Shown here: piece by piece, positions 661 to 60,655 of the stretch
Layout: the number at the start of each line of letters is the position of its first letter
Numbering within the stretch: position 1 is the first letter of the stretch
NCBI GenBank assembly: GCA_035291665.1
Contig: DATDRP010000006.1
Span: forward strand, 145,255 to 209,254
Origin: Patescibacteria group bacterium
GTDB lineage: Bacteria > Patescibacteriota > Microgenomatia > UBA8517
Direction: 5' to 3'
Length of the DNA: 64,000 nt
The notes under the pieces: generated by a model
Told to the model about the DNA's origin: nothing
The model's database searches: none
What the model saw: the letters and a program-made list of their open reading frames with translations, nothing else
Made by a program: the position numbers and the translations under genes

Positions 661-778
661 AGTACAAAGAGAATAGTGAAAAGAAATAAGCAATAAAAAT
701 AGGCAATAAGTTGTGGGATGTGAGTAGTGGGAATTGAGTCTTAAGTATTAAGTTTTAAGTAGTTAGTATTGATATATT
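661..778 (-). repeat. Intergenic mosaic element, inverted copy (C-depleted on + strand)
   Basis: Only 4 C in 118 nt (665, 691, 704, 740). 713-733 is the exact reverse complement of 53106-53126 (21-mer TTCCCACTACTCACATCCCAC). Confidence 0.8.
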
Positions 779-3163: not shown

Positions 3164-3194
3164 GTGTCTTTAAGTATTTATATCCTATATTATT

Positions 3195-3223
3195 TTACTT
3201 CATTTGCTTGGATTTGGTATAAT
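3195..3223 (+). promoter_or_regulatory. Putative rnpB promoter (TTACTT-17 nt-TGgTATAAT)
   Basis: Extended -10 TGGTATAAT at 3215-3223. This places the predicted transcription start about 7 nt downstream, at the first base of the P1 helix (3230). Confidence 0.45.
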
Positions 3224-3229
3224 ATACAT

Positions 3230-3746
3230 GCTTTGGAGAAGGAGTGATCGCCACGTTCAGTTAACATGAACGTGGAGGAAAGTCCAGGCAGCAGTAAGAA
3301 GGGAACGGAGCGTAAGCTCCGACTGGAAGCCAGCTTAGCTGGTGAACAGCTGGTGTCTTTGGTTTGTGAAAATAAACTAAGAACCGAATCTGAATTGACA
3401 GATTTGGAGAGTCACAGAGACGATCCTTCGGTTAAACTTGAGGAATTACGACATTAATCAGCAAGTAACTTTGCGATAGATGACTAATCCTTAGGCACAT
3501 TGAAGGGGTGAAACGCTGATAATCCCACCCGCTGCAACCTCCGACTATCCCACCCTTTTTATTTTTTATAAAGTAAAAAGACAAAGCAGCTTACCTGAAA
3601 TTTATTAGGAATGATAGAAATATCAATTCAATAAAGGCGGGATGAAGCTTGAGGGCAGTCCTGATTAATTCGGGACAACTCCGATTTAATCGGAGTTAGA
3701 CAGATGATCACTTAGAAACAGAACCTGGCTTACTATTCTCCAAAGC
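3230..3746 (+). ncRNA. rnpB: RNase P RNA (bacterial type), unusually long
   Basis: Conserved GGAGGAAAGTCCAGGC (about 3274-3289), GGGGTGAAACGCTG (about 3505) and ACAGAACCTGGCTTAC (3717-3732). The P1 helix pairs CTTTGGAGAA (3231-3240) with TTCTCCAAAG (3736-3745). Confidence 0.88.
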
Positions 3747-3752
3747 CTTAAG

Positions 3753-3780
3753 AAACCCACAAGTATTTGTGGGTTTTTTC
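3753..3780 (+). terminator. Rho-independent terminator after rnpB
   Basis: AAACCCAC - loop - GTGGGTTT stem followed by a T-run. Confidence 0.7.
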
Positions 3781-3821
3781 ATGAATAATGAATAGCAAAG
3801 TTTTCACCGAAGGAGGGGTTT

Positions 3822-3843
3822 TTACTATTCTCCAAAGCCTTAA
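3822..3843 (+). repeat. Duplicate of the rnpB 3' end (copy of 3730-3751)
   Basis: Exact 22-mer TTACTATTCTCCAAAGCCTTAA occurs at 3730-3751 and 3822-3843. Both copies are followed by AAACCC and a hairpin. Confidence 0.85.
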
Positions 3844-3870
3844 AAAACCCCGATGGAGTCGGGGTTTTTT
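3844..3870 (+). terminator. Second Rho-independent terminator
   Basis: CCCCGA - TGGAG - TCGGGG stem-loop followed by TTTTTT. Confidence 0.6.
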
Positions 3871-3900
3871 AGTTGCAAGGAAGGATGTTAAAATTAAGTT

Positions 3901-4095
3901 ATGAATACATTCTTTTTCATGATTTCAATCCTCTGTTTCATGCATGCTTTGAGAGACTATCTTCAAATGAAGGGAATTAACAACTGGTTTACAGAATTCG
4001 GACATATTTGGAAAAAACCGGAATGGGAAAAATATAGTGCAGTATTTTTTTCTATTTTGGGATTGATATTGTTATTTTTCGCAATTAGAAATTAG
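3901..4095 (+). CDS. Small hypothetical membrane protein (64 aa)
   Basis: ORF with two hydrophobic segments. No recognisable family. Confidence 0.35.
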   Translation: MNTFFFMISILCFMHALRDYLQMKGINNWFTEFGHIWKKPEWEKYSAVFFSILGLILLFFAIRN

Positions 4096-4189
4096 ATCAA
4101 TTAGTAATTTTTTAGACTCGTTTATGTAATATAATAAAAACATAGCTTTACCTTTATTTAATATATGAGGTAGAAAGTGGTGCCTGCCT

Positions 4190-5869
4190 ATGTTATTGTC
4201 GAATGACAAACTTAAGAAGATACTTGTCGGGTCCGGATATATTACGGAACCCGATTTTGATAACGCCGTACAAAGTGCCACTGACCTGGGAAAAGACGTC
4301 TCTGACATCCTGATCTTCAGAGGATTAATCAGCGAGGATGCACTGGGTAAACTAATTTCCCAGCACTTCAATATTCCATACGTTGACGTACGGAGAATGT
4401 TTATATCAACAGAAATCCTGAAGCTGATTCCTGAGAAGTTGGCCAGGGTGTATCGAATGATTCCTTTTGAACTTACGGGGAAAAAACTTAAGGTTGCAAT
4501 GGAAAACCCTGAGGATTTTGAGGGTTTGGAATTCGCAAAACGTCAAACTGGTTTTGAGGTTGAACCGTATTTTGCAAGGTCGGAAGATATTTCAAAAGCG
4601 CTTGGACAATACAAAAAGAATCTGAAAAGCGACTTTGAGAAAATTATTTCTGAAAACCTGAAAAAAGCCAGTGTCAGCGGTAATTTGGAAAAAGCGGCAG
4701 AGGATGTTCCCATTGTTAAAATTTTAAACACAATTTTTGAATATGCTGTTGCTGCTAGGGCTTCCGATATACATATTGAAACACAAACAGATGATGTTGT
4801 AGTCAGATTCAGAATAGATGGAGTTTTACGGGACATCATAAAGTTTCAGCGCGGTATTGAAGAAGCAATTATTGCCAGAATCAAGATTCTTTCTAATTTA
4901 AAAATTGACGAACATCGTATTCCTCAGGACGGAAGATATAAATTCAATATTGATGACGAAGTGGTCGCACTTCGTATTTCTATAATCCCCGGATTTGTTG
5001 GGGAAAACGTTGTCATGAGAATTCTTCGCGAGACCAACCGGCCGTTGAGTTTTGAAGAGCTGGGTATAACCGGAAAAGGCTTGAAAATTCTTAGAGATAA
5101 TACTTCAAAACCACACGGAATGATTCTTGTCACGGGTCCGACCGGATCCGGAAAAACTACGACTCTCTACTCCGTTTTGAATGTCTTAAATACAATTGAA
5201 GTTAAGATCTGTACAATTGAAGATCCGATTGAGTACGGAGTTAACCGAGTAACTCAAATTCAGGTAAATCCAAAAACAGGATTAACTTTTGCCTTAGGCC
5301 TTCGGGCTTTAATGAGACACGACCCGGATATTATTATGGTTGGAGAAATCCGCGATCAGGAAACAGCAGAAATAGCAATTCATTCTGCTTTGACGGGACA
5401 TCTGGTATTATCCACCCTGCACACAAATACGGCATCCGGCGCAGTACCCCGGCTTTTGGACATGGGTGCAGAACCGTATCTTTTGGCTTCAACTCTGAAT
5501 CTGATCGTGGCGCAAAGACTGGTTCGGAGGATTTGCCAGACATGCATTACAAAATACCAACCCGATCCGGAAATAATAAAGCGCATCGAGAAGGATCTTG
5601 GAGCAGACTATATAAAAATAAAATTTTATAAAGGCAAAGGTTGCGATGAGTGTAATAATAAGGGCTATTCAGGACGGGTTGGCATATATGAAATACTACC
5701 CGTTACAGAAAAACTACGGGAAGTAATTTCAAAAAAACCATCTTCCGAAATGCTTGAAGATCAGGCATTAAAGGAAGGGATGGTTTCAATGCTTCAGGAC
5801 GGAGTTGATAAGGTTTCAGCAGGACAAACGACTATTGAAGAAGTCTTTAGAGTAGCAAGCGAAGATTAA
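4190..5869 (+). CDS. pilB: Type IV pilus assembly ATPase (GspE/PilB family)
   Basis: N-terminal T2SSE_N-like domain, Walker A GPTGSGKTTTLY, Walker B IIMVGEIRD, His box GHLVLSTLHTN, and the tetracysteine CQTC...CDEC. Confidence 0.9.
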   Translation: MLLSNDKLKKILVGSGYITEPDFDNAVQSATDLGKDVSDILIFRGLISEDALGKLISQHFNIPYVDVRRMFISTEILKLIPEKLARVYRMIPFELTGKKLKVAMENPEDFEGLEFAKRQTGFEVEPYFARSEDISKALGQYKKNLKSDFEKIISENLKKASVSGNLEKAAEDVPIVKILNTIFEYAVAARASDIHIETQTDDVVVRFRIDGVLRDIIKFQRGIEEAIIARIKILSNLKIDEHRIPQDGRYKFNIDDEVVALRISIIPGFVGENVVMRILRETNRPLSFEELGITGKGLKILRDNTSKPHGMILVTGPTGSGKTTTLYSVLNVLNTIEVKICTIEDPIEYGVNRVTQIQVNPKTGLTFALGLRALMRHDPDIIMVGEIRDQETAEIAIHSALTGHLVLSTLHTNTASGAVPRLLDMGAEPYLLASTLNLIVAQRLVRRICQTCITKYQPDPEIIKRIEKDLGADYIKIKFYKGKGCDECNNKGYSGRVGIYEILPVTEKLREVISKKPSSEMLEDQALKEGMVSMLQDGVDKVSAGQTTIEEVFRVASED

Positions 5870-5877
5870 AAAAGCTT

Positions 5878-7086
5878 ATGCCCTTATTTACATACAAAGT
5901 TAAAAATAAAAAAGGAGAATTAATTGAAGATGTCATTCAAGCTGCGGACAGTAAGGATGTCCAGTCTAACCTTCAAGCTGAAGGTTATCAGATTTTGACC
6001 ATCAGAAGGTTGGACTCAAAATTAAGCAGCCTCTCAGCAGGTGGAATTTCAATTTCAGAAAAAGCCGCCTTTTGCAGATTTTTGGCAACCATGTTGCGGG
6101 CGGGTCTTCCGCTTCCTGAAGCAATCGACATCATAAAAGATGATACGAAAAATCGTAAACTTAAAAAAGTACTTTTTGATATCGCATATGAAATTCGAAA
6201 AGGGAAAACCATGTCATCAGTATTGTCAAAGTATAAACGGGATTTTGACCCTGTTTTTCTGACGATGGTTAAGGCAGGAGAAGAATCAGGAACGATTGAT
6301 AAAAGCTTCGATTATCTCGCCAAACAATTATTAATGACATATGAACTAATTCAAAAAGTGAAAGGTGCGATGATGTACCCGATAGTTATAGTTGCTGCTA
6401 TGGGGGCAAATTTTGTTGTCATGCTTGTTTTTGTTTTGCCGAAACTTTCCAATGTTTTTCTTCAATTAAATGTTGAATTGCCTCCTGCCACCCGATTTGT
6501 GATGGAAACCGGCCAATTCATTGGCGACAATACGGTATTAGTTTTGGGAATTTTAATCGGTTTATTGGTTATAGGTTTTGTTCTTTTTACAGTTCAAAAG
6601 ACCCGGGATGCTATAACAGACTTTTTCATGCGCCTTCCTGCAATAAAAGATTTAATTATTCAGATTGACGTTGCCAGGTTTTCAAGAACACTTTCAACAC
6701 TTCTTCGAAGCGGAGTACCGATTATGGTCTGCCTGGAAGTTTGTGCAAATATCATGCGTCAGCCGGCACTCAAGAAACAGGCAAAACTTTTCGGTGAAAA
6801 AGTTGCTGAAGGAAAACAGCTTTCTGAAGTAATTGTAGGAGGTAGTAAAGCGTTTCCGTCAACTGTAATTCAAACAATTAAAGCAGGAGAAAAAAGCGGA
6901 AGTCTGGAAGATGTTCTGGAGGAAATGGCTGAATTTTATGAGAGGGAAGTCGATTACAATCTGAAGAAATTGACGTCTTTACTGGAACCTCTTTTGATGT
7001 TGGTTATCGGGGTAGCGGTGGGTGCGATGGTAATAATTATGATAACACCGATTTATTCTCTGGTCGGCGGGCTTGATAAGTTCTAA
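5878..7086 (+). CDS. pilC: Type IV pilus platform protein (GspF/PilC family)
   Basis: Two T2SSF-type repeats and three TM segments. The 402-aa size and the position directly after pilB fit PilC. Confidence 0.9.
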   Translation: MPLFTYKVKNKKGELIEDVIQAADSKDVQSNLQAEGYQILTIRRLDSKLSSLSAGGISISEKAAFCRFLATMLRAGLPLPEAIDIIKDDTKNRKLKKVLFDIAYEIRKGKTMSSVLSKYKRDFDPVFLTMVKAGEESGTIDKSFDYLAKQLLMTYELIQKVKGAMMYPIVIVAAMGANFVVMLVFVLPKLSNVFLQLNVELPPATRFVMETGQFIGDNTVLVLGILIGLLVIGFVLFTVQKTRDAITDFFMRLPAIKDLIIQIDVARFSRTLSTLLRSGVPIMVCLEVCANIMRQPALKKQAKLFGEKVAEGKQLSEVIVGGSKAFPSTVIQTIKAGEKSGSLEDVLEEMAEFYEREVDYNLKKLTSLLEPLLMLVIGVAVGAMVIIMITPIYSLVGGLDKF

Positions 7087-32566: not shown

Positions 32567-33901
32567 ATGTTTAAAACTCCTCTTCCTAAAGTGTTGCTGA
32601 TAATATTTCTGACCGTTTTTTCAATATATATTAATCTTCCCGGAAGCTTCACGCTTGATTTAACCCGTTACAAAATAAATTTCAATAAAACGCTTTCGAA
32701 ACCTGATCTAAAAATTGGAAGATTCAATTTGGGGAAAAAGAACGAGCTTATTTTGGGACTCGATCTTCAAGGGGGAAGCCGCTTGGTATTTGAAGCCGAT
32801 ACGGTAAATATAGACAGTTCTGTTTCCGGTGATGCATTGACCGGAACGAAAGATATTATAGAGAAACGGGTAAACCTTTTCGGGGTATCCGAACCCAATG
32901 TTCAGCTTTCCGAATTCGAAGGTAAAAAAAGGATTGTTGTTGAGCTTCCTGGGATAAAAGACATTAAGGAAGCAATAAAAATAATCGGGACTACTGCCCA
33001 GCTTAATTTTGCCGAAGTGAGCGAAGAAGAAGATAAAGGTTTGATTCCGACTGATCTAACCGGAGCGGATCTTGTAAAATCCCAAGTACAATTCGATCAA
33101 AAAACTTCAAAACCGGTTGTCGCCATAGAATTTAATGAAGCGGGCGGCAGTAAGTTTGAAAAATTGACGGAAAAAAATATCGGAAAGCCATTAGTAATCC
33201 TTCTGGATAATAATATTATTTCATATCCCACGGTGCAGGATAAAATTTCGGGCGGATCGGCAGTTATTACCGGAGATTTTACTTTGGACGAGGCAAAAAA
33301 TCTTGCAATTCAGCTTAATGCAGGAGCATTGCCCGTTCCGATCACTTTGGTTGAGCAAAGGACTGTCGGAGCGGCATTAGGTACCGAATCAGTACAAAAA
33401 TCTGTGAATGCGGGAGTAGTCGGCTTAGTTATGGTTATGCTCTTTATGATTCTTTCATATGGACGGATGGGTTTTGTTGCCGATTTAGCGCTCCTCATAT
33501 TCGGAACCATTACACTATCCTTGTATAAATTGATTCCCGTAGTTTTAACTCTTCCGGGAATTGCCGGATTTTTACTTTCGGTTGGTATGGCAGTTGATTC
33601 AAATATTTTGATATTTGAAAGGTTTAAAGAGGAAATAATTAAACGACCTTTTACAGATGCTCTTGAAATATCATTTGGGAAAGCATGGGATTCCATACGT
33701 GACGCCAACATTGCAACCCTGTCAACAGCTTTTATTTTGGCAAATCCTTTTGAATGGAATTTTCTACACACTTCCGGTCCGGTACGCGGTTTTGCTATCA
33801 CACTTGCTTTGGGGATTCTGATCAGTTTATTTACAGGCATTGTCGTTACGAGAAATTTACTAAGGGTTCTGATTCGAAAGAGTGGAAGAGTAAAAGAGTA
33901 G
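32567..33901 (+). CDS. secD: Protein translocase subunit SecD
   Basis: LGLDLQGG, periplasmic domain, and a C-terminal 6-TM block with DSNILIFERFKEE. Confidence 0.9.
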   Translation: MFKTPLPKVLLIIFLTVFSIYINLPGSFTLDLTRYKINFNKTLSKPDLKIGRFNLGKKNELILGLDLQGGSRLVFEADTVNIDSSVSGDALTGTKDIIEKRVNLFGVSEPNVQLSEFEGKKRIVVELPGIKDIKEAIKIIGTTAQLNFAEVSEEEDKGLIPTDLTGADLVKSQVQFDQKTSKPVVAIEFNEAGGSKFEKLTEKNIGKPLVILLDNNIISYPTVQDKISGGSAVITGDFTLDEAKNLAIQLNAGALPVPITLVEQRTVGAALGTESVQKSVNAGVVGLVMVMLFMILSYGRMGFVADLALLIFGTITLSLYKLIPVVLTLPGIAGFLLSVGMAVDSNILIFERFKEEIIKRPFTDALEISFGKAWDSIRDANIATLSTAFILANPFEWNFLHTSGPVRGFAITLALGILISLFTGIVVTRNLLRVLIRKSGRVKE

Positions 33902-33963
33902 AAGAGCTTGAGTATTTTTTTTACTTATACACTTGAACTCTCCTGCTCTTATACACTAATCAT

Positions 33964-35216: not shown

Positions 35217-36644
35217 TTACTTCAGTTTTAAAAGAGCTTCGATGAGCTCATCCGGGTTATTTTTGATTTCTTTAGCAACAACCAAGTCAAATAGCTTTTT
35301 TAAAGCTTCACCGACTTTGGGTCCGGGTTTGAGATTGAGTTTTTTCATAACGGTAACTCCGTTAATCTTCAGATCAGTAACTTTGAATGGCTGCTTTTGA
35401 ACAAGTTTTATCTTCCGTTTGAAATCCTCCAATCTCCAGGAGGTTTCACTAGCACCACCACCGAGTCTGTCAGCAGTTCTTAACGCGAGCATATCGGAGA
35501 CGTTTTCCAGACCAACGTTAGTAATAAACCTTCTCACCGCAGTATCTGTTTGATTTTCGTTGACGCTAAATTGGTGCCAGCGGACAAGTTTTTCCAGTTT
35601 TTCGGACTGTTTTTTTGAAAGCTTAATCCTTTTTGCCAACTTCTTGGCAATATATGTACTTACAACTTCATGATTGTAGAAAGTTATTATCCCGCTGTTC
35701 AATTTTTTATAGGTTGATACTTTTCCCAAATCATGAATTAGTATTGCCAGTTTTGTCACGGGGTCTTCGGTTGGTGCAAATTTCAATGACATAAGAGAGT
35801 GTGTCCCGACGTCGTACACATGGTGTCTCCGGGGAGATTTTTGCTGGATATCGAATGCTTTTTCAAATTCGGGAATAATCTGTTCCATAAGTTTGGTTTT
35901 TTGAAGTAACATTACTCCTTCGTGTGCGTACGGAGACTTCATAATTTTCAGAAGTTCATCTCTCACCCTCTCAGCTGTGATTTTTCGGATCGAGTCAGAA
36001 AGTTCCTTAATCGCAAATAAGGTGTGCTCTTCAATTTGGAAACGGATTTCAGTTGCAATTCTAACCGCACGCATCATCCGAAGGGAATCTTCAGTAAAAC
36101 GTTCGACCGGATTTCCTACTGCCCTAATGAGTTTATTTTCGAGATCTTTTTGACCATCGTAAAGATCAATTAGAGTAAAAGTGCGGGAGAGTGCAAGAGC
36201 CTGAGCAGTTTTTTTCTTATACTCTTTTACTCTTTTACTCTCCTGCTCTATTTTCAACGCCATTGCGTTAATGGTGAAGTCGCGTCTTTTGAGGTCGTCA
36301 GTAAGTGTTTTTCCCCACAAGACTTTGTCTGGTCTTCGCGAATCGCTATAACCGTGTTCAGTTCTGAAAGTCGTAATTTCGTAAGGTCTTTCTCCTTCAA
36401 TTTCGTTTGGGATGCCGACGGTTCCGAATTTGTTATCGTAATAAGCATTTTCAAAAAGAGTAAGGATTTGTTCGGGTACAGCATTAGTTGTGAAATCCCA
36501 ATCATAGACAATTTTTCCCATTAAAATGTCCCTTATAGCCCCGCCTACAATATAAATTTCAAAATCTTTTTTTTCAAAAGCGGATATAATTTTTGCTACC
36601 TGACCGGGAACATCAACTTTCATATTATTTGTAGTAAGCATCAA
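35217..36644 (-). CDS. cca: CCA-adding tRNA nucleotidyltransferase with HD domain
   Basis: IVGGAIRD, RDFTINAMA, and the HD motif LAILIHDLGK. Confidence 0.88.
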   Translation of the reverse strand: MMLTTNNMKVDVPGQVAKIISAFEKKDFEIYIVGGAIRDILMGKIVYDWDFTTNAVPEQILTLFENAYYDNKFGTVGIPNEIEGERPYEITTFRTEHGYSDSRRPDKVLWGKTLTDDLKRRDFTINAMALKIEQESKRVKEYKKKTAQALALSRTFTLIDLYDGQKDLENKLIRAVGNPVERFTEDSLRMMRAVRIATEIRFQIEEHTLFAIKELSDSIRKITAERVRDELLKIMKSPYAHEGVMLLQKTKLMEQIIPEFEKAFDIQQKSPRRHHVYDVGTHSLMSLKFAPTEDPVTKLAILIHDLGKVSTYKKLNSGIITFYNHEVVSTYIAKKLAKRIKLSKKQSEKLEKLVRWHQFSVNENQTDTAVRRFITNVGLENVSDMLALRTADRLGGGASETSWRLEDFKRKIKLVQKQPFKVTDLKINGVTVMKKLNLKPGPKVGEALKKLFDLVVAKEIKNNPDELIEALLKLK

Positions 36645-50874: not shown

Positions 50875-51258
50875 ATGCAAACAGGATCTGAACTTTGTAA
50901 AATATGCCCTATTAATGAGAGCTGCAGTTCAGATCTTAACCCTGAAAGTGCAACAAAAAGGAGGCTTGTCATTAATAATCCCTGGAACTGCCGGCATCTG
51001 ACGTGTCCTGCAGGCGTTGAAGAAGCCAAAAAGGAAAAGTCGCGTTTAAGATCTAAAAATATATTTTTTGGTTATGCCTACTTTTCGTCAAAGGACAAAC
51101 CAAGTGTCAGAAGATTTGATATGAAGTTGGGTATTATCGAATCATTTCAGGATGGACAGTGGCATTCAACAGGTCAGTCAATCTATAAAAATTATATTGT
51201 TGATAGAAAAAACTATCCATATAAAAGAATCAGGAATTTCAGTGTGAAGAAAACTTAA
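50875..51258 (+). CDS. Hypothetical Cys-containing basic protein
   Basis: 127-aa ORF. N-terminal CKIC...C...C..C cysteines. No family. Confidence 0.45.
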   Translation: MQTGSELCKICPINESCSSDLNPESATKRRLVINNPWNCRHLTCPAGVEEAKKEKSRLRSKNIFFGYAYFSSKDKPSVRRFDMKLGIIESFQDGQWHSTGQSIYKNYIVDRKNYPYKRIRNFSVKKT

Positions 51259-51323
51259 AACTAAATACCCACTTCCCACAACTCATTTCCTATTTCTTTC
51301 CCCTTTTCTCTATTAGCTAATTT
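51259..51323 (+). repeat. G-depleted intergenic mosaic element (short copy)
   Basis: 1 G in 65 nt. 51278-51314 matches 59601-59637 at 33 of 37 positions. Confidence 0.8.
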
Positions 51324-51776
51324 TTAATCCCTGACTTTTGTCTTTTCTATATCTTCTTCGCTCATGCCGAAATGGTGGGCGATTTCGTGAATAACGGTAT
51401 TTTTGATATTAACAACTGCGTTTTCATAACTATTAGAAATCCGAAGAAGGGGAATTTTAAAGATTGTGATCTTATCAGGGAGCGGTCCGCCGATGCCATA
51501 GTTTCTTCTTTTTGTCTGGGGTATTCCTTCATACAAACCAAGAAGTAATCCTCTGCCTTGGTTTCTCCCGACAAGGTTCATTTGCGATACCGTCGGCCAG
51601 TCAGCAATTACAATTGCCACATTTTCCATTTTGTCTTTGAACTCCTGAGGAAGTTCTTTCAGCGCCTGATCGATAATTTTCCCAAACTCCTGATCATCCA
51701 TGAAGGAAATTATATTTAATCCCAAGCTTAACGGCAAGGAAGGTTCATCGCTGAAGACCAATTCGGCGGCTTTCAT
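51324..51776 (-). CDS. Small zinc metallopeptidase-like protein (HExxH, DUF1025-like)
   Basis: HEIAHHFG motif near the C-terminus. The true start may be the internal Met (MDDQEFGKII). Confidence 0.65.
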   Translation of the reverse strand: MKAAELVFSDEPSLPLSLGLNIISFMDDQEFGKIIDQALKELPQEFKDKMENVAIVIADWPTVSQMNLVGRNQGRGLLLGLYEGIPQTKRRNYGIGGPLPDKITIFKIPLLRISNSYENAVVNIKNTVIHEIAHHFGMSEEDIEKTKVRD

Positions 51777-51826: not shown

Positions 51827-53065
51827 ATGGACGAAGCCGGGGATAACATTACTGGAAGTCATATCTCAAGAAGAGATTTTTTGAATATGGGAGTATTGGG
51901 TTTGGCATCAATTGCTACTGGTAAAAAATTGGTGAATACCATTAATTATCTCGCTGACGCATTAGGTGATAAAGTTGAAGAATCGGGAATTAATAACAAG
52001 CTCCATGAAGTTTTGAAAATTGTTCAGGAAAATTCAAAGATGATTGTTAATTTTTCTGACAAATATGGTATCCCACCGGAAGTTTTGGCGACAGTTGTGT
52101 CTATGGAACATTTGATTATTTTAACCGGTAAAACGAAAAAAGATGGATATGCGATAGGTATTTCGGAATCAGATTCCATAAAAGGATTTACTGATTTAAT
52201 CGAGAAAGAAATTCACCCCGATAAAGCCAATATAGGATTGTGTCAAGTAAATCTTCAGGATGCAATCAATTTTGAAGACCGATTGGTTGGAAAAGATGCG
52301 TTTCCTGATGCGGATAAGCAAAAAAGAGAACAAACGACTTATGAGAGGCTGGAATCTCCTTGGTGGAACATGGTGTATTTTTCAGAAATGCTTAAAAAAG
52401 AGGCCGCTGATACCGGAAAAACTATTACAGACAAACAAGCAGCAACCCAGTTTATCAGAGAAAAATACAATGACGACTCTCATAAGTTAAAAATATTTAA
52501 TGAACTACTGGATGTATATTCAAACTTTTTTCAGGATAAGAAACCGGATGAAAAATTTAAGAGGTGTTCACTCGAAGAAGCGATAAGTGTTTGGAATGAA
52601 TACCCAGAGTATTCACATTTATTCCGAAGTGTTTGGCCTGTTGAATACTTTGTAGTTCATCATACTGCAGGTAAATATCACACTGAGTCGATAATCACAG
52701 CGGAACACATTGCCAAAGGTTTTGGTGACATTGGTTATAACGGAATTATCGGGAATGGCGAACTTACAAGCGACGGTAAATTTTATCCTGGGAGAAGTAC
52801 AAAAAAAGAAGGTGCGCATACTTTGAGCTACAACAAAAAGTCCATCGGTGTTGCTTTGGTCGGGGATTTCAATATAACTGAACCCACAACGCTACAACTG
52901 GATTCATTAAGGAAAGCCATTATTGCCAGTTCTGCAATTTATGAGATTGATCCTTTCAAAGTAGTTGGCCACAGAGAACTAAATGATACGCAGTGTCCGG
53001 GAAATAATTTTACAACTGATAAATTCAAAAGACCGGTAGATGTGGCCGCAGGGAAAATAGTATAG
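51827..53065 (+). CDS. Secreted N-acetylmuramoyl-L-alanine amidase (Amidase_2/PGRP fold) with additional N-terminal domain
   Basis: Tat-like SRRDFLNMGVLGLAS. The C-terminal FVVHHTAG...GYNGIIG...AHTLSYNKKSIGVALVGDF...GHRELNDTQCPG is amidase_2. The N-domain contains GLCQVN (SLT-like, weak). Confidence 0.8.
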   Translation: MDEAGDNITGSHISRRDFLNMGVLGLASIATGKKLVNTINYLADALGDKVEESGINNKLHEVLKIVQENSKMIVNFSDKYGIPPEVLATVVSMEHLIILTGKTKKDGYAIGISESDSIKGFTDLIEKEIHPDKANIGLCQVNLQDAINFEDRLVGKDAFPDADKQKREQTTYERLESPWWNMVYFSEMLKKEAADTGKTITDKQAATQFIREKYNDDSHKLKIFNELLDVYSNFFQDKKPDEKFKRCSLEEAISVWNEYPEYSHLFRSVWPVEYFVVHHTAGKYHTESIITAEHIAKGFGDIGYNGIIGNGELTSDGKFYPGRSTKKEGAHTLSYNKKSIGVALVGDFNITEPTTLQLDSLRKAIIASSAIYEIDPFKVVGHRELNDTQCPGNNFTTDKFKRPVDVAAGKIV

Positions 53066-53200
53066 AAAAACTTAACTCCAAATAACTTAATTTCTATTTT
53101 TCCCTTTCCCACTACTCACATCCCACTTCCCATCACCTACCCCCTACAACCTATCTCCTACCGCTTACAATCCACTTTTTATCTCCATTCATCTATATTT
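53066..53200 (+). repeat. G-depleted intergenic mosaic element
   Basis: 1 G (53163) in 135 nt. Contains the 21-mer 53106-53126 shared, inverted, with 713-733. Confidence 0.85.
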
Positions 53201-53205
53201 GTAGC

Positions 53206-53243
53206 TTTCGGATGGCGTACAATACCAGCATTATGCAGGAAAA
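53206..53243 (+). promoter_or_regulatory. 38-bp conserved 5' module, copy 1 (contains TACAAT 53218-53223 and ATG 53233)
   Basis: Identical to 53517-53554 at 34 of 38 positions. Confidence 0.6.
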
Positions 53244-53526
53244 TGAAAAACCATCAATTTGTCAACGGAACTTTATGCTGGATTGCAAGCCCGGCTGTCC
53301 TCTTTATGCTTATTCCAAGAATTCCGTTCAAACTTTGGCGGATCAACACGGAGTGACTTTTGATGAAGCAATAAAAAAGATCCGAAGTATGCGCTTTGAT
53401 CAACAAGTGCAGATTCTGGCTTTAATAAAGGGTGGTTTACAATCCGTAAAAGAGAAGAGGGGGATTGTTTTGGAATGCGATAATGAGAAAAATGGGTTAA
53501 TTTCGGACCATTTTGGTTTCGGATAG
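53233..53526 (+). CDS. Hypothetical small protein (97 aa from ATG 53233, or 104 aa from 53212)
   Basis: ORF with CQRNFMLDCKPGC. The start is chosen by analogy with the duplicated module. No family. Confidence 0.45.
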   Translation: MQENEKPSICQRNFMLDCKPGCPLYAYSKNSVQTLADQHGVTFDEAIKKIRSMRFDQQVQILALIKGGLQSVKEKRGIVLECDNEKNGLISDHFGFG

Positions 53527-53554
53527 CGTACAATACCATCATCATGCCGGAAAA
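53517..53554 (+). promoter_or_regulatory. 38-bp conserved 5' module, copy 2 (TACAAT 53529-53534, ATG 53544)
   Basis: Same TACAAT-to-ATG spacing as copy 1. Overlaps the stop codon of the upstream ORF. Confidence 0.6.
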
Positions 53555-53786
53555 GTGGTTTCGAAGGGTAGAAAATTTGGCAATTATTCCAGTAATAGGT
53601 GGTGATTTACCGGGTATGTATAGGGAGTTTCCACCTGAACTTCATGATGCTTTTGAGGAAGGTAAAAAAGCACTGGTTCCCGGTGAACAGTCTTATATAT
53701 CTATGAGGGGTCCTGTAAAGTATGGTGGTTTTGAAAGCAAAGTATTCATCGTTTCGAAGATCACTCTCGTAAAAGTTGCAGGGTGA
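53544..53786 (+). CDS. Hypothetical small protein (80 aa)
   Basis: ORF immediately after module copy 2. No family, and no similarity to the neighbouring small ORF. Confidence 0.45.
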   Translation: MPEKWFRRVENLAIIPVIGGDLPGMYREFPPELHDAFEEGKKALVPGEQSYISMRGPVKYGGFESKVFIVSKITLVKVAG

Positions 53787-53787
53787 G

Positions 53788-54029
53788 AAACTACTAAAAA
53801 CTTAAAACTGAATACTAAATACTCACAACTCACTTCCCACATCTCACTTCCCATTTCTTTTCGCTTTTCTCTATTCTCTTAATTCCTTAATTCCTATATT
53901 CCTAATTTCTTATCTTCATTTCCCACAACTCACTTCTCACTACTCATTTCCTACTTCCTACCTCCTACAACCTATAACCATTGCCCCTCTCATTTCTCAC
54001 ATCCCACATCCCATCTCTTACAACCTACC
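53788..54029 (+). repeat. G-depleted intergenic mosaic element (long copy)
   Basis: 3 G (53810, 53863, 53983) in 242 nt. 53849-53906 matches 59611-59668 at 54 of 58 positions. Confidence 0.9.
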
Positions 54030-54056
54030 GATCAGTGTTAATATACCAATATAAGT

Positions 54057-55028
54057 ATGAAGAAAATAATTGCCGCTATTTTACTATTATTAACAGCCGC
54101 ATTTGTGTTTTTCGGTTGGCAATATTTTGCTCCGGTTGGTTCATCCGAAGATCTTGTGGTTTTTGTCGTTCCGGAAAAAATGCCGGATTTTAATGTACCC
54201 GAAGAACTGTATAAGCAAAAATATATTAAAAGTTCCAAGGCCTTCCGGTTCCTTCTTGAAAATTTTGCACCGGGAGTAGAGATAAAACCCGGCGGATATA
54301 AAATAAGTCAAAACATGAATGCTTGGCAGGTTATGAAAAAGATTACAGGACAAGAGGATTTGAAATGGGTAACAATTTCTTATTGCCCCCGGAAAGAACA
54401 GGTTGGCGAGAAGCTTGCAGAAGTCTTGGGGTGGAACGACCTGAATCTAAGTGATTGGAATTCGCTCTATAAAAATACCAAACAGGAGTATTTTGAAGGA
54501 GTCTATTATCCGGATACATATCTGATTCCGGTTGACGAATCCCCATCACAAGTTGCCGGAAGATTTATAAACCGTTTCAATGAAAAGTTCGCACCTTTAT
54601 CGGAAAAGTTTATAGAAAAAAATATCAAATGGACGACAGGTCTCAAGATTGCCTCACTTATAGCCCGCGAAGCAGGAGGAACAGAGGATATGAATATAAT
54701 ATCTGCCGTAATCTGGAACCGTTTGGACGGGGGAATGCCGCTTCAGATTGATGCAACGATGCAATACACTCTCGGAAAAAATGAGGATGGCAGCTGGTGG
54801 GGAAATATTGATCTTTCAGAAAAAGATAAAGACTCGCCCTATAATAGCTATATGTATAAAGGACTTCCTCCCACTCCTATTTGCAGTCCGAATGTTAGTG
54901 CCATTGAAGCTGTTATTAACCCCGAAGAAACCGATTGTCTATTTTATCTGCATGACAAGAATAAAAATATTCATTGCGCGGTTTCCTACAAAGACCATCT
55001 GAAGAATATCCAAAAATATTTGAAGTAA
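54057..55028 (+). CDS. mltG: Endolytic murein transglycosylase MltG (YceG-like)
   Basis: N-terminal TM. YFEGVYYPDTY, ASLIAREA, VIWNRL, QIDATMQY, YNSYMYKGLPPTPICSP. Confidence 0.88.
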   Translation: MKKIIAAILLLLTAAFVFFGWQYFAPVGSSEDLVVFVVPEKMPDFNVPEELYKQKYIKSSKAFRFLLENFAPGVEIKPGGYKISQNMNAWQVMKKITGQEDLKWVTISYCPRKEQVGEKLAEVLGWNDLNLSDWNSLYKNTKQEYFEGVYYPDTYLIPVDESPSQVAGRFINRFNEKFAPLSEKFIEKNIKWTTGLKIASLIAREAGGTEDMNIISAVIWNRLDGGMPLQIDATMQYTLGKNEDGSWWGNIDLSEKDKDSPYNSYMYKGLPPTPICSPNVSAIEAVINPEETDCLFYLHDKNKNIHCAVSYKDHLKNIQKYLK

Positions 55029-55166: not shown

Positions 55167-58100
55167 TTGAGAATGCGGACGTTTTCAAGAAAGCTATCAT
55201 ATCTTCTTTGTTTTACTCTTCTTTTTTACCAACTCTCCCTTTTTTTATTCAACGATGCAAAAACCGCACAAGCAACTACGGCATCATATCAAGTGTCAAC
55301 TTCTACTGATGATGTAAACGAAGACGGCGGGACAATGAATTCAACAAGTACCAGTATTTGGGTGGGAACGGGCGGATCCACAAGCCAAAGTTACACCGGT
55401 TTCCGATTTACCAACGTAAGTATTCCCCAAGGATCAACTATTACATCTGCTTATATAGAGCTTTGGTCTATCCAAGATTCATGGATTGATACCGGTTATC
55501 AAATCGGGGCAGAAAATGTCGGCAATAGTACAACTTTCACAAGTACAACAAAGCCGTCACAACGGGCTCTGACAACCGCCGTGGTCAACTATTCATCAAG
55601 CTCCCATTGGTTAATCAACACTTGGTATCAGGATGCAAACATACCCTCAGTTATTCAGGAAGTTGTTAACCGTACTGATTGGACAAGCGGTAATGCGTTG
55701 TCGATTATTTACAAGGGAACTTCCGCAGCATGGGGTAGAAAGTATGCATCAAGCTATAACGGGAACCCATCCTATGCTCCGCGTTTAGTTGTTGCATTTG
55801 AAGCCGCAACCACGCCTAGTCCGACGCCGCCGCCGACGCCCACTCCCACTGAAACTCCGACTCCTACACCAACAGAAACACCAACTCCTACTCCTACCGA
55901 ATCTCTAACTCCGACTCCCACGGAAATCCCCACTCCCACTCCGACCGAGACGCCAACGCCAATGCCTACCCCAACAGCCTCGGTTACCCCGACACCTCAG
56001 CCACCTTCGGAATGGACGCAGCTCGGACATGACGCACAGCATTCATCGTACACGGAACAATTTGTCCCAACCCCATGGAAGTGGAAATGGTCATGGAACG
56101 GACCCGACGCAGCAGGAAATGTACGTGCGGATAAACTGAATTATCCCGGAAGCAGTGATTTTACAACTCCGGGTATCCCTCGGAATATTCAACCGGTGAC
56201 CGGTGGGGGTAAAGTATATATTGCTGCCGGAAATTTCGGTGTTTACGCCCTTAATGAGGAAGACGTAAATACTGACAGTTTTGCAGATGTTTTGTGGAAC
56301 GTAAATCCGGTTGCTGGTGGTGGAGTTAAGTCAACTCCCGCATACGATAGCGAAACTGGAGCATTATTTGTTCTTGGAACAAATGGCGTTGTTTACAAAT
56401 TGGATACCCTTAACAGCGGGATCGTGATTGGAGAATTTAATACAAATCAAAGTTATGCACCATATACAACAAGTGCTGACCGATACAATCGGGTAGCGTT
56501 GCCGACATCCCCCACACTTTCGGGAAACCGGTTATTTGTATCGATGGGACAGAAAGTTTTTGCACTGGACAAAAACAATCTTAGTAATCTTATATGGGAG
56601 TACGATGCGGGAGCAGAAGTTTATACACCGCCTGCATACTCAACTGTCAGGGATATGGTCTTTGTTGCATCTCAGGATTTGACACCCGGTCCGGATGGAA
56701 AACTTCATATTTATACGCATGCAATATCAAATTCTAATGGACTGGAATTGTGGAAGACTAGCATCACTAATATCACCGGTGTTGAAGCGGGAGACCCCAA
56801 CCCGCCTCCAAATTACACCAGCCAGGTAAGAGCGGAAGTACTTAACGGTTGGCCGGTTATTGCTGAAGAACATGGTCTGGTTTTTATCAAATTAAGACTT
56901 AATTGGAATACGATGTGGACTTGGAGTCCCTGGTCAACGAGCAATGAGACGAACCGGACGAGGCTTCTTTCCAATCCAACACAACAAGCTCTGATTGCTC
57001 TTTCAATGGATAGCGGGAGCCAACCGTTTGTTGTCAATATCGGTCACGGAGGCTATGGAGATGGATTCATCCCGATGGGACCCCAACCGGTTGTAAAGAG
57101 GTTTGCCGATGGGAGTGAAGTTGTCTATACGATGGTAAGGGGAGACAGTCAATCCGGTGTTGACGGTCGTTCGGATACCCACTTTGGGGAGTTGGTTTTG
57201 GATTCAACAACAGCAACCGGATTTGAACCGGGCTATGTCAGATGGATTGAATACGGTAATTATGGTTGGCCGGCAAATTCAAATAATGATACTCCGCCGA
57301 CAGATGAGCAGCCGAATGTATCAATGTCAGGAAACTATCTTTTCGGAGGCCACTGGGCTGTTGGGAATGCGATGGAAATCGTTGATAGGAATGCAAATTT
57401 GGGAGGCTATTCAAACCCCATCACAACAGAACCGATTCCGAATATCGCTTTAATGACAAATTCGTCAACTGTTCCGGAAGGATTTGACTCTTCACACTAT
57501 GTTTCACACAATTTTGGCATGGCAACGAATGGGGAATGGAGGGCGTTGCCTCCCGGATTTTACGTATATTGGAATCAAGGGCATCTTTATGATCAATACT
57601 GGAGCGACTACTCTACCTGGACAGTTAGTAATAATACCGTTTACTATTTGACGAATGATGGTGCACTTGTTGCTTTAGATCACAATAGTGGCAGTCCTAC
57701 ACCTACACCAACACCCAGTCCAACTGCCACGCCTACTCCCACTGAAACTCCGACTCCGATACCGACCGAGATACCAACACCTACGCCAACTGAGATTCCT
57801 ACCCCGACACCGACTGACATTCCGGCTCCGACTCCAACAGAAATACCTACTCCGACACCTACGGATTCTCCCACTCCAACGCCGACTGATACGCCCACTC
57901 CCACGGACACACCCACTCCGACACCTCCGCTAGTGATTAATATGGCTGTCATGAGCGACAGCTCTTCTGATGAGTATCGTGCAGACGACAATCGTGCCGG
58001 AGGAACTCAATGGGAGTTAACAACGCTGGCCTGGACCGAGTTATTGGAAAAATATCGCGGATTTAATTTGGGGTCTTGGGGAACGCGTGGGGAGCCAAGA

Positions 58101-59597
58101 CGGACCGGTTATGAATACAATTGGGCAAGGACAGGTGCCGAAGCAGCAGATGTAGTTTTTGCCGGCCAACATACAGGCGTTGCTTCCCAGGCACAGTCGG
58201 GTTTAGTCAATATTGTTTATTTCCAGATAGGAAACAACGATTTTGCATATTACCGAGACGGTGCAGATATATATAACGGTGCTCTTTCAGGACAGGCTTT
58301 AACCGATAAAATTAATGCAATAATTTCAAATATCTCAACTTCTCTCGATACTGTTTTGGATGCAGATCCAAACGTAAAGGTAATTCTTGGAAATATTGCA
58401 GATCCTGGACTATCACCTTATTGGGCAGCACAATTCCCTGATCCGGTAAAAAGGCAGTTGGTTACCGATGCAATAAACCAAACTAATGCGGGTATAACAA
58501 ACCTGCTTCTTACCCGGAGCAGAGTTACTTTATTTGATCAAATGGCTTTTGCAAACGAGCTTATGTCTAAGGTTGTTAATGGTAATTTGGTGATAGGCGG
58601 AGAAAATATCAGCTTAACTCAAAATGGCGATGAACCCCACCATGCAATTTTGGGAGATAATATCCATGGCGGGACAGTAATGGAAGGCTTAGTTGCCAAC
58701 GGTTTGATTCCTCTGGTAAATCAGACAACCGGATCGCAGATTCAATTATTTTCTGAAACCGAAATTTTGAATAATTCTGGTATCTTTCCCAGTCCGACTC
58801 CGACTCCCACGGTGATTCCTACTCCGACACCTACTCCGGTGTTTGAAACTCACTATATATCGGTAAATCCGGACGGAGTTATCGGAGGGGTAGCTGTTGC
58901 CGGAGAAGATATTCTCAAATTCAATACCGTAACTGGTTTGTATGAAACATACTTCGACGGTTCGGATGTTGAGCTTTCGGGAACATCGATTGATGCGTTT
59001 ACCTTTCTTCCCGGAGGCGACATGATTCTGTCTTTTTCCGGAAGCGTTTCAATAACTGGGTTGGGGACAGTCGCTTCGCAGGACTTGGTCAGGTTTACTC
59101 CGCTTTCGACAGGTAATAGTACAAGCGGATCTTTTAGTTTATATTTTGACGGATCAGATGTTGCCTTAAGCAATTCGTCGGAAAATATAGATTCAGTATC
59201 GGTTTTGGAAAATGGGGATATTCTCTTATCAACAAATGGCAGTATTTCCGTAACCGGAGTTTCAGCAAACGATGAAGATATTATCGAATTTACTCCGACT
59301 TCACTCGGTCCGGCAACTTCGGGAAGCTGGTCACTTTATTTTGATGCATCTGATGTTGGATTATCAAGTACGAGCGAAGATATCGATGCTTTGAGTATCG
59401 CGTCATCGGGAGATTTTTATCTTTCAACAAGCGGCAGCTTCAGTGTTACGGGTGTCTCCGGTCAAAATAATGATGTCTTTATCTTTGATCCGTTAACTTT
59501 GGGAGGGGATTCGTCAGGAACTTTTTCCCAGCCGATTTATTTGGACGGAAGCGCTTTCGGATTATCGGGTTTCAACGTTACGGGATACTACAAATAA
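55167..59597 (+). CDS. 1476-aa secreted multidomain protein: unassigned N-domain, PT linker, PQQ-like beta-propeller, PT linker, SGNH/GDSL-like hydrolase, PT linker, four novel ~64-aa repeats
   Basis: Signal/TM at the N-terminus (start TTG 55167 or ATG 55173). Propeller-type repeats ([62 protein letters not shown]). SGNH blocks ([22 protein letters not shown]). Confidence 0.85.
55811..56005 (+). repeat. Coding Pro/Thr linker 1 (degenerate TPTPTE codon repeats)
   Basis: [56 protein letters not shown]... Confidence 0.85.
57694..57930 (+). repeat. Coding Pro/Thr linker 2 (degenerate TPTPTE/D codon repeats)
   Basis: [79 protein letters not shown]. Confidence 0.85.
58878..59594 (+). repeat. Four tandem ~64-aa protein repeats at the C-terminus of the 1476-aa protein
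   Basis: Units begin near 58878, 59073, 59265 and 59460. Consensus: [ED]D[IL]..F.P...[22 protein letters not shown]....GD..LST.GS.SVTGVS. Confidence 0.75.
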
Positions 59598-59825
59598 CTT
59601 ACAACTCATTTCCCATTTATTTTCCCTTTTCTCTAGTCTCTTAGTTCCTTAATTCCTATATTCCTAATATCCTACCCCCTATCTCTAATAACCAATTATC
59701 AAATTCCAAATACCAAACAATAAATTTCTAATATCTAATTTCCAATAAATTTTCTCTTAGTTCCTTAATTCCTTTATTCCTGATATCCTACCTCCTATAA
59801 CCTGCAACCTATAACCATTATACCC
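59598..59825 (+). repeat. G-depleted intergenic mosaic element (long copy with internal 46-nt duplication)
   Basis: 5 G in 228 nt. 59637-59682 and 59753-59798 are identical at 43 of 46 positions. Colinear with 53849-53906 and 53957-53982. Confidence 0.9.
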
Positions 59826-60551
59826 TCACATTCTGTAGCTTAACGCTGAAGTGTTGGCTTTTGTGATATTAACACTTAGGATTTCACCATCATAATTGAA
59901 TACGAATGAAACACGAGCATCAAGATTGTTTGTGATGTATAGATTTTGTCTTGCACTTTTATCAAATCCGCCGGGAAGATAAAAAATTGAAACTCCGTAT
60001 TCCTTCGGAACTTCATTAATAACAGCAAAATTGTGATTTGAAGGATCATATGCAGTCAGTCCTGCATCTTTTGCCGCCCAGTATAAAATTGATGCCAAAT
60101 GGCAGACACCGTCTCCCATAAGATAACCATCGGACTTGAACCCATCCTGATAGTTGAAGCGGGCATTAGTCGTTTTAACTACATTTTTATTAAACTTATC
60201 CAGTATCTGGCTATGAAAAGCAAAGCTTTCTCCCGGGTTCAAATCAAACTTATAGTCCCTGGGTTTTTCAATATTCTCCCAGACGATTTCTGATTTATTT
60301 TTAACTGTCCCGTCCATATAGTTTAAAGTCAGAAGGATATTATCTTTGAATACATCATTTACAAATTTATTGGGATATCTCTCCTCCAAAGATATGGATT
60401 TTGAAGAAAGGGTAGAGTATCCTTCTTCTTCTACGGAATTATTATTTGCCACATTGACCACCTCCGCCGGGGACGACGGGAATAAAATTATCAGTAATAT
60501 AAAAAGATAAAGTAATTTTTTATACATAGGACTCACTTTTTTTTCAGACAT
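59826..60551 (-). CDS. VanW-like protein
   Basis: N-terminal signal/TM. The GDGVCHLASILYWAAKDAGL motif resembles the VanW-domain GGGVCQ.S.TLY core. Confidence 0.6.
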   Translation of the reverse strand: MSEKKVSPMYKKLLYLFILLIILFPSSPAEVVNVANNNSVEEEGYSTLSSKSISLEERYPNKFVNDVFKDNILLTLNYMDGTVKNKSEIVWENIEKPRDYKFDLNPGESFAFHSQILDKFNKNVVKTTNARFNYQDGFKSDGYLMGDGVCHLASILYWAAKDAGLTAYDPSNHNFAVINEVPKEYGVSIFYLPGGFDKSARQNLYITNNLDARVSFVFNYDGEILSVNITKANTSALSYRM

Positions 60552-60655
60552 AAAAAAAGTTCCCGAACGGGAACTATAGTGTGTATATTACCACATTATA
60601 GGTCTTTTTTCAACCTAACTGATGAAAATATGTTTATTTTTTGATAGTCTGAAAT

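Follow-up and report, generated by a model that had tools for sequence, protein, structure and literature searches.

Heptamer Repeats in Bacteria

In many bacteria, heptanucleotides are the most abundant class of long simple-sequence repeats (SSRs), and they have been proposed to arise by slippage, according to the summaries of Mrazek, Guo & Shah (2007) given in PMC4679880 and PMC4692102. In the account of PMC4692102, long SSRs have been reported mainly in large, high-GC genomes, and its authors state that no function has been established for the heptamer repeats of bacteria.

The STRR heptamers of heterocystous cyanobacteria form compound non-coding arrays of several heptamers (Mazel 1990; Vioque 1997, both as cited in PMC2858038) and, according to the citing paper, also occur inside RNase P RNA. 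The GGGNATC/GGGGAYT repeats of Xanthomonas and Nostoc (Rehm et al. 2015, PMC4692102) are strand-asymmetric, with a G-rich and a C-rich strand; they favour spacers between co-oriented or convergent ORFs, are rare in divergent ones and abut stop or start codons, and syntenic spacers keep an array whose sequence varies. The TAACTGA repeats of marine Beggiatoaceae, cyanobacteria and some Bacteroidetes (MacGregor 2015, PMC4679880) are intergenic heptamers located by start codons in distant phyla, sometimes gathered in larger assemblages of mixed heptamers and tied to local gene rearrangement.

The tract described here lies in a window of 64 kb (by window is meant the whole stretch of DNA that was analysed, 64,000 nucleotides) and is of a kind already known, that of bacterial intergenic heptamer repeats without established function. 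Like the long heptanucleotide SSRs, it consists of intergenic 7-nt units arranged head to tail, is sporadic over lineages, has been assigned no function so far and has slippage as a proposed origin. Unlike them, its arrays are short (2-5 units), degenerate and joined into colinear multi-module tracts, and its host has a small CPR genome of 38% GC. The compound arrays of several heptamers are shared with STRR, as is the presence of a heptamer hairpin in an RNase P RNA (locus L114, see below); however, the units and the phylum differ, and STRR arrays are near-perfect. The strand asymmetry and placement of the GGGNATC repeats are also found here, although the units are others, the arrays are degenerate and none of the copies has canonical G-quadruplex (G4) potential. 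Similarity to the TAACTGA repeats extends to the mixed assemblages and the rearrangements; the unit is different, and TAACTGA is mostly found 'forward' upstream of starts, whereas most copies here begin at stops. The new features are the degenerate, colinear multi-module build, the complete absence of G over up to 250 nt, and the host, a small, low-GC, reduced CPR genome in which every spacer is costly.

The G-Less Tract Downstream of an Amidase Gene

The tract and the gene that precedes it are located as follows.

51827-53065 (+): gene for an N-acetylmuramoyl-L-alanine amidase (Amidase_2), whose TAG stop abuts the element.
53066-53200 (+): G-less element, characterised by base composition, lag-7 autocorrelation, TRF and RNA minimum free energy (MFE).

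The initial annotation had drawn attention to a stretch almost devoid of G after the amidase gene, and the base count bears this out: 37 A, 49 C, 48 T and one G, at position 53163, in 135 nt of the plus strand (C 36%, G 0.7%). At the G frequency of the window, 0.21, the calculated probability of finding at most one G in 135 nt is about 1e-12 per position. YC dinucleotides occur at 34 of 134 positions, and the 78-nt segment with the highest excess of C over G on either strand of the 64 kb is inside this tract (38 C and one G, +5 sd). Its first base lies directly 3' of the amidase stop, and its last base 12-75 nt 5' of the first of two small ORFs.

The key to what the element is lies in its 7-nt periodicity, a feature that the initial annotation had overlooked. 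The tract can be read as a mosaic of heptamers (TTCCCAC, TACTCAC, ATCCCAC, TTCCCAT, CACCTAC, CCCCTAC, AACCTAT, CTCCTAC and so on) with a lag-7 autocorrelation of 0.49 (z 3.8) and a lag-14 z of 3.7, and TRF detects a period of 7/14 at 53134-53162. The RNA of the G-free strand has an MFE of 0 kcal/mol over 135-145 nt. Taking into account that this strand can form neither G-C nor G-U pairs, the hairpins of REP or MITE elements and terminal inverted repeats are absent from it.

Some other identities were considered and rejected. A coding function is incompatible with a 7-nt period, and the G-free strand of all copies carries only 0-1 start codons, as well as 0-1 SD tetramers, per copy. Known structured RNAs (Rfam 15) gave no match in the whole window at the gathering threshold; with the cutoff relaxed to E<=5 (50.8-60.7 kb), the elements were still without one; no tRNAs were found in the window. 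An orientation set by the replication strand was discarded, as GC skew is positive through 1-50 kb with no switch between inverted and direct copies, and a TIGR-Tas array was set aside with no Tas-like (Nop-domain) gene among the Pfam-scanned neighbours.

Six Tracts in One Window

Tracts of this kind number six in the window, and not three as first annotated. In addition to 53066-53200, they are:

655-790 (G-free strand, -): e655, with the RNase Y stop (654) on one side and the conserved HU promoter on the other; lag-7 z 5.2.
1146-1196 (G-free strand, -): e1154, a short copy with 8-nt units of TAATATCT type that overlaps the HU stop codon; lag-8 z 2.3.
51247-51332 (+): e51259, filling the spacer in which a 127-aa ORF and a zincin-like gene converge; lag-7 z 4.6.
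53788-54034 (+): e53787, called the longest and most periodic copy; lag-7 0.62, z 10.5, with TRF arrays.
59584-59834 (+): e59598, filling the convergent spacer between a 1476-aa gene and VanW; lag-7 z 6.0, lag-8 z 3.3, with TRF arrays.

A sliding detector of period 7 run over the 64 kb returned exactly these six tracts, and none in shuffled sequence. The 7-base periodicity is significant in five of the six (lag-7 identity 0.49-0.62, z 3.8-10.5), the sixth being 8-periodic. All are intergenic, none lies in a divergent spacer, and each takes up the spacer that separates a stop codon from the following or a convergent gene; they measure between about 50 and 250 nt, and modules are present in some copies and absent in others. 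Four are sense to an upstream gene, e655 and e1154, which flank the HU gene, are antisense to both of their neighbours, and only two stand in sense orientation upstream of a start codon. One of these spacers, occupied by e53787, separates the stop of the second small ORF from MltG, the 3' end of the element being located 23 nt before the MltG ATG. No further copies were found in the 2.1 kb to the left and 8 kb to the right of the window, so that about 74 kb of the genome were covered.

When TRF is applied at a low threshold, the tracts are resolved into concatenated micro-arrays of 2-5 copies with a period of 7, 8 or 14 and 68-100% matches, all but one of them scoring below the default of 50. 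The units include ACTAAAA, CACAACTCACTTCC, TCTTTTC, ATTCCTTA, CTCACTT, TTCCTAC, CACATCC, CACCTAC, ACCAAAT and CCTATAA, none of which contains G, and the unit types encountered across tracts are CTTAAAA, YTCYCAC, TTCCTTAA and CCTAYAA. Thus, the tracts lack G because every unit is made of A, C and T only. STRR units contain G.

The usual definition of an SSR asks for perfect or near-perfect repeats, and these tracts fall short of it, while showing head-to-tail iteration of 7-nt units, non-coding placement and rarity in divergent spacers. They have therefore been filed as a variant of the heptanucleotide SSR class.

Modules Shared between Copies

Two of the copies, in opposite orientation and 52 kb apart, have an exact string in common.

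53106-53126 (+): 21-mer TTCCCACTACTCACATCCCAC, composed of three heptamer units.
713-733 (-): exact inverted copy of this 21-mer, inside e655.

This identity, which had been claimed from the start together with its improbability, is exact, and the improbability stands as well. In shuffles of the window 0.01 such matches are expected, and two stricter null models, chosen to respect the low-complexity vocabulary, also gave low values: when the 7-mer units of the distal copy were shuffled, a shared string of at least 21 nt appeared in 0.26% of trials (P=0.0026), and under a third-order Markov model trained on all elements the probability was 0.0003 (0.03%). A match so improbable under low-complexity nulls argues for copying and against chance.

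The resemblance noted between 3' modules was confirmed as well: identity is 73% between 53115-53154 and 53943-53982, and 83% between the latter and 59780-59819. Furthermore, e59598 and e53787 share 74 nt with 89% identity (the match being at 53839-53912). Four copies are colinear over about 90-130 nt, running from a head ACTTAAAACTnAATAC through CAC-type heptamers to TTTCTTTTCnCTTTTCTCTA and TTCCTTAATTCC, an order that can also be read as head, CAC units, T-rich module and TTCCTTAA units. The same order of modules in four copies identifies a true dispersed family. Neither the 21-mer TTCCCACTACTCACATCCCAC nor the TTCCTTAA module had a match in viral contigs.

The Host and Its Relatives

By MltG and its neighbours, the host is a Woesebacteria-like member of the Patescibacteria/CPR with a small genome of 38% GC, known from aquifer metagenomes, in which the longest contig with these genes measures 606 kb. 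In its closest relatives, protein identity is 66-73% for MltG and about 50% for MiaA.

Two of these relatives (L137 and L138) keep the order RecA-RecX-RNase Y-HU-(three ABC genes)-MiaA. Their RNase Y|HU spacer measures 40-47 nt, against about 200 nt in the window, where it includes e655, which is thus an insertion of about 150 nt relative to them. In turn, e1154 sits where the three ABC-transporter genes (3386-6000 in L137, 2467-6000 in L138) are missing, the gap between HU and MiaA in the window being a 77-nt spacer (1154-1230) that holds this copy. On the side of MltG, the lineage resembling RIFCSPLOWO2_01_FULL_39_23 (L123) has MltG directly convergent with VanW, and the 113-nt spacer between both genes carries a different heptamer array, TAYGNAT, of 94 nt. 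The same two genes are separated in the window by e59598 and a 1476-aa gene that L123 lacks. The MltG flanks of four other relatives (L120, L121, L131 and L135) have no arrays.

The reading first given to the tract had been made to depend on further copies and on conservation of the element at syntenic positions. The outcome was divided: the window has six tracts, and relatives are devoid of the element both at the RNase Y|HU spacer and at the MltG flanks. According to these comparisons, the family is lineage-specific and was gained at stop codons and rearrangement junctions. 'An array' can persist in a spacer even as the array's own sequence turns over. The assemblies of the host species that were retrieved are identical to the window at every overlapping base, and for this reason no length polymorphism was seen.

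L137 has other small arrays of 7/8 nt elsewhere (TAACTATC). Three octamers of TAACTATC type stand directly before the MiaA ATG of this relative (5975-6000), and an inverted heptamer run (CAAACTC..., then ...GGATTTA) is found at 6148-6219, inside the called MiaA ORF.

The Same Vocabulary in Other Phyla

A degenerate pattern of three heptamer units was searched in species-representative genomes. Among the matches listed, at least 118 loci in many phyla use the same vocabulary, including Bacteroidota, Pelotomaculum and other Firmicutes, Gemmatimonadota, Acidobacteriota, Planctomycetota, Chloroflexota and Syntrophobacteria, and nearly all of these matches are inside tandem (NTCYCAC)n arrays, often beside other heptamer arrays. 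According to rough gene calls on the matches listed, the C-rich strand is sense in 17 and antisense in 22 tandem gene pairs, 12 array spacers are convergent and 4 divergent, and the median distance from the 3' side of the C-rich strand to the ORF end is about 0 nt. The proportion of 17 to 22 means that these cross-phylum arrays have no sense-strand bias. Their placement reproduces the rule of Rehm et al. for GGGNATC heptamers, and the ORF-proximal rule of Xanthomonas and Nostoc thus extends to the loci listed, beyond the cases published. Taken with the presence of a colinear, G-free family in a reduced CPR genome, this spread and the placement rule suggest a general mechanism or selective constraint and not lineage-specific accidents.

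The search of metagenome contigs with the family pattern (head plus heptamers) matched only two foreign loci, and the source sample was not among its matches. One of them, Bacteroidota-like (L125), has six arrays in 7.9 kb, and one of its operons contains four sense and one antisense; in the other (L126), an array ends at a start codon. The arrays of both stop 0-5 nt before start codons without SD. When the tandem contexts of the window, L125 and L126 are added together, the sense:antisense ratio is 7:3, which is not significant.

Other observations were made at these and other loci. In L125, inverted CTTAAMA arrays (3277-3344 and 3657-3740) flank a gene for a 23S-rRNA-intervening-sequence protein (PF05635), and a gene judged similar by eye lies directly upstream of an array in L126. 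L114 has, at 4915-5345, an RNase P RNA of bacterial class A (297 bits) that holds an inverted heptamer pair around 5148-5167, made up of a GTGGGAA-type run, a loop and a TTCCCAC-type run. In Pelotomaculum (L002, 414-697), a match to the c-di-AMP riboswitch spans 284 nt, against 134 nt of the model, the surplus falling at an inverted pair of heptamer runs. Finally, in a Gemmatimonadales MAG (L046, 4507-4640), a tRNA-Thr gene is followed, about 8 nt beyond its 3' end, by a (CTTCCCA)n array, with a short GTGGCTCT linker.

Origin and Possible Roles of the Tracts

The tracts are probably a compound heptamer simple-sequence family, generated by slippage and recombination and acting as inert spacer. 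Units would grow locally by slipped-strand mispairing or unequal recombination and later decay by point mutation. Copying between spacers, in either orientation and by recombination or template switching, would involve whole tracts or only portions, the 21-mer for example. They would accumulate in harmless places, namely rearrangement junctions, convergent spacers and the sequence just 3' of a stop codon, while sparing the divergent spacers that bear promoters. Once transcribed, the G-free strand would provide an unstructured stretch almost without starts or SD sequences, and thus behave as inert filler within polycistronic or 3'-UTR transcripts.

What the sequences themselves show is the composition, the periodicity and mosaic build, the colinearity of the family, the lack of structure and of orientation bias, and the restriction to one lineage; the mechanism of slippage plus copying and the lack of a sequence-specific function we infer. 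Recent slippage is hypothetical, because the arrays are far from perfect and most TRF scores are below the default of 50. Moreover, streamlined CPR genomes are not expected to keep neutral spacers of 65-250 nt, which hints at selection, and that G is completely missing from units of different types may likewise point to selection for a G-free sequence as such.

As the main functional alternative, the tracts, when transcribed from the upstream gene, would constitute a Rho-loading (rut-like) terminator or polarity module, in which YC dinucleotides recruit Rho hexamers and read-through is ended or attenuated, a proposal that we regard as unlikely. A textbook rut site is a C-rich, G-poor, unstructured RNA of about 80 nt. 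The tract corresponds to this description in composition (38 C and one G in 78 nt, the most C-over-G segment of that length in the 64 kb), in structure (MFE 0) and in its 34 YC dinucleotides in 134 positions; it begins at the base after the stop, four of the six copies are sense to the upstream gene, and no intrinsic terminators were predicted at the elements or after their upstream genes (a second scan was too strict to inform, with almost no matches anywhere). However, rut sites depend on orientation and do not form repeat families, whereas two of the six copies here, e655 and e1154, are inverted and antisense to both neighbours, the 7:3 ratio of the window, L125 and L126 is not significant, and the cross-phylum matches listed are sense in 17 cases and antisense in 22. 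In addition, MltG (54057-55028) starts 23 nt 3' of e53787 with no promoter predicted between element and gene, so a strong terminator at this site would silence it, and the corresponding spacers of relatives do without the element. A literature search on Rho in this host returned nothing relevant. Whatever their role, the G-free tracts offer a clean, naturally occurring substrate on which Rho loading could be tested in uncultivated bacteria.

A discrete non-autonomous mobile element similar to a SINE or MITE, of about 90-250 nt, could have been mobilised in trans and inserted at gene ends in either orientation. The colinear multi-module build of four copies in both orientations suits such an element at least as well as it does recombination between arrays, and the exact 21-mer common to copies in opposite orientation 52 kb apart, the insertion of about 150 nt that e655 represents between the RNase Y stop and the HU promoter with respect to L137 and L138, and the location of copies at synteny breakpoints would also be accounted for. 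This origin is nonetheless quite unlikely, taking into account that the copies have neither terminal inverted repeats nor hairpins (the repeat search shows no local inverted arms), that no target-site duplication or sharp termini can be recognised and lengths vary from about 50 to 250 nt, that no transposase, integrase or reverse transcriptase is encoded among the Pfam-scanned neighbours, that no copies turned up in viral contigs, and that an internal periodicity of 7 nt is typical of SSR growth and not of transposons.

A wider proposal would unite the strand-asymmetric heptamers (YTCYCAC, CTTAAMA) in one cross-phylum class made by an active mechanism of repeat addition or copying, the G-free version of CPR having been co-opted as a transcription-insulating module through Rho loading or nuclease resistance. 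ORF-end placement with fixed polarity, the inverted pairs flanking small genes (the IVP gene of L125) and the arrays inside helices of RNase P RNA and the c-di-AMP riboswitch were counted as consistent with it; even so, we consider it very unlikely as a whole.

A role for the tracts as platforms for a single-strand or nucleoid protein (S1, cold-shock, KH or RRM proteins on RNA, HU-type on DNA), tuning the translation or stability of neighbouring genes as proposed for the TAACTGA repeats, seems highly improbable. Evenly spaced short units suit multi-domain single-strand binders, S1, Csp or CsrA have been proposed for TAACTGA heptamers by start codons (MacGregor 2015, PMC4679880), the arrays of L125 and L126 end 0-5 nt before SD-less start codons, and the HU gene has a copy on each side. 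Nevertheless, no candidate protein is linked to the arrays, the units vary between modules and genomes, both orientations occur, and only two of the six window copies are sense upstream of a start codon. A G4 or i-motif element on the G-rich minus strand, of the GGGNATC sort, is hardly credible: the minus strand of 53108-53144 has tracts of G5, G3, G3 and G3 (one of the two relaxed-loop motifs in the 64 kb), related (GTGGGAA)n arrays of other phyla are perfect G3N4 repeats and heptamers whose G4 has been verified by experiment follow the same placement rules (PMC4692102), but 53108-53144 qualifies only when loops of up to 12 nt are allowed, a canonical motif (loops of up to 7 nt) is absent from all six copies and from the rest of the window, and most units are of CTCAC, CCTAC or CTTAA type without a C3 tract, the inverted 21-mer having two G3 tracts only, so that G4 potential is not a family trait.

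As matters stand, the heptamer family of this window exemplifies a class already known, and no function has been demonstrated for it.

The Surroundings of the Tracts

The segment between the amidase and MltG genes (53233-53786) contains two small orphan ORFs.

53233/53275-53526 (+): first small ORF (ORF1).
53544-53786 (+): second small ORF (ORF2).

As had been proposed, both are bracketed by the copies at 53066-53200 and 53788-54034, which is evident from the positions; however, the elements are not special to this cassette, since four other spacers are also filled. ORF1 has a weak coding signal, ORF2 found no homologue but itself among 5.8 billion proteins, and neither has a match in NCBIfam or Pfam; none of the relatives keeps this gene order. 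Each of the ORFs is preceded by a 38-nt direct repeat, TTTCGGATRGCGTACAATACCAKCATYATGCMGGAAAA (53206-53243 and 53517-53554, 89% identical), which contains a TACAAT hexamer similar to a -10 box; the stop codon of the first ORF is inside the second repeat.

The 1476-aa gene (55167-59597) includes C-rich repeats coding for Thr and Pro, with a period of 24/48 nt, at 55839-55957 and 57692-57928. These are the other strong C-over-G windows of the region, and a JGI contig of the same organism breaks there.

In the divergent spacer that lies 5' of the VanW start, the minus strand presents a terminator-like hairpin AGTTCCCGTTCGGGAACT followed by T7 (60558-60575), which may be a leader or attenuator; a weak Rfam match to Phe_leader (25 bits, E 0.96) overlaps it. 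At the other end of the window, a gene-poor stretch of about 1 kb (3164-4189), for which there were no Rfam or tRNA matches and JGI calls two tiny ORFs only, carries two 49-nt repeats (3730-3778 and 3822-3870) that are 82% identical and both end in a GC-rich hairpin and a T-run. Lastly, an inverted match of 27-28 nt, AGAGTGGAAGAGTAAAAGAGTAGAAGAG, with 86-89% complementarity, joins 33879-33906 and 36215-36249, which are 2.3 kb apart and at or near gene ends; its apparent unit is CTCTTTTA.
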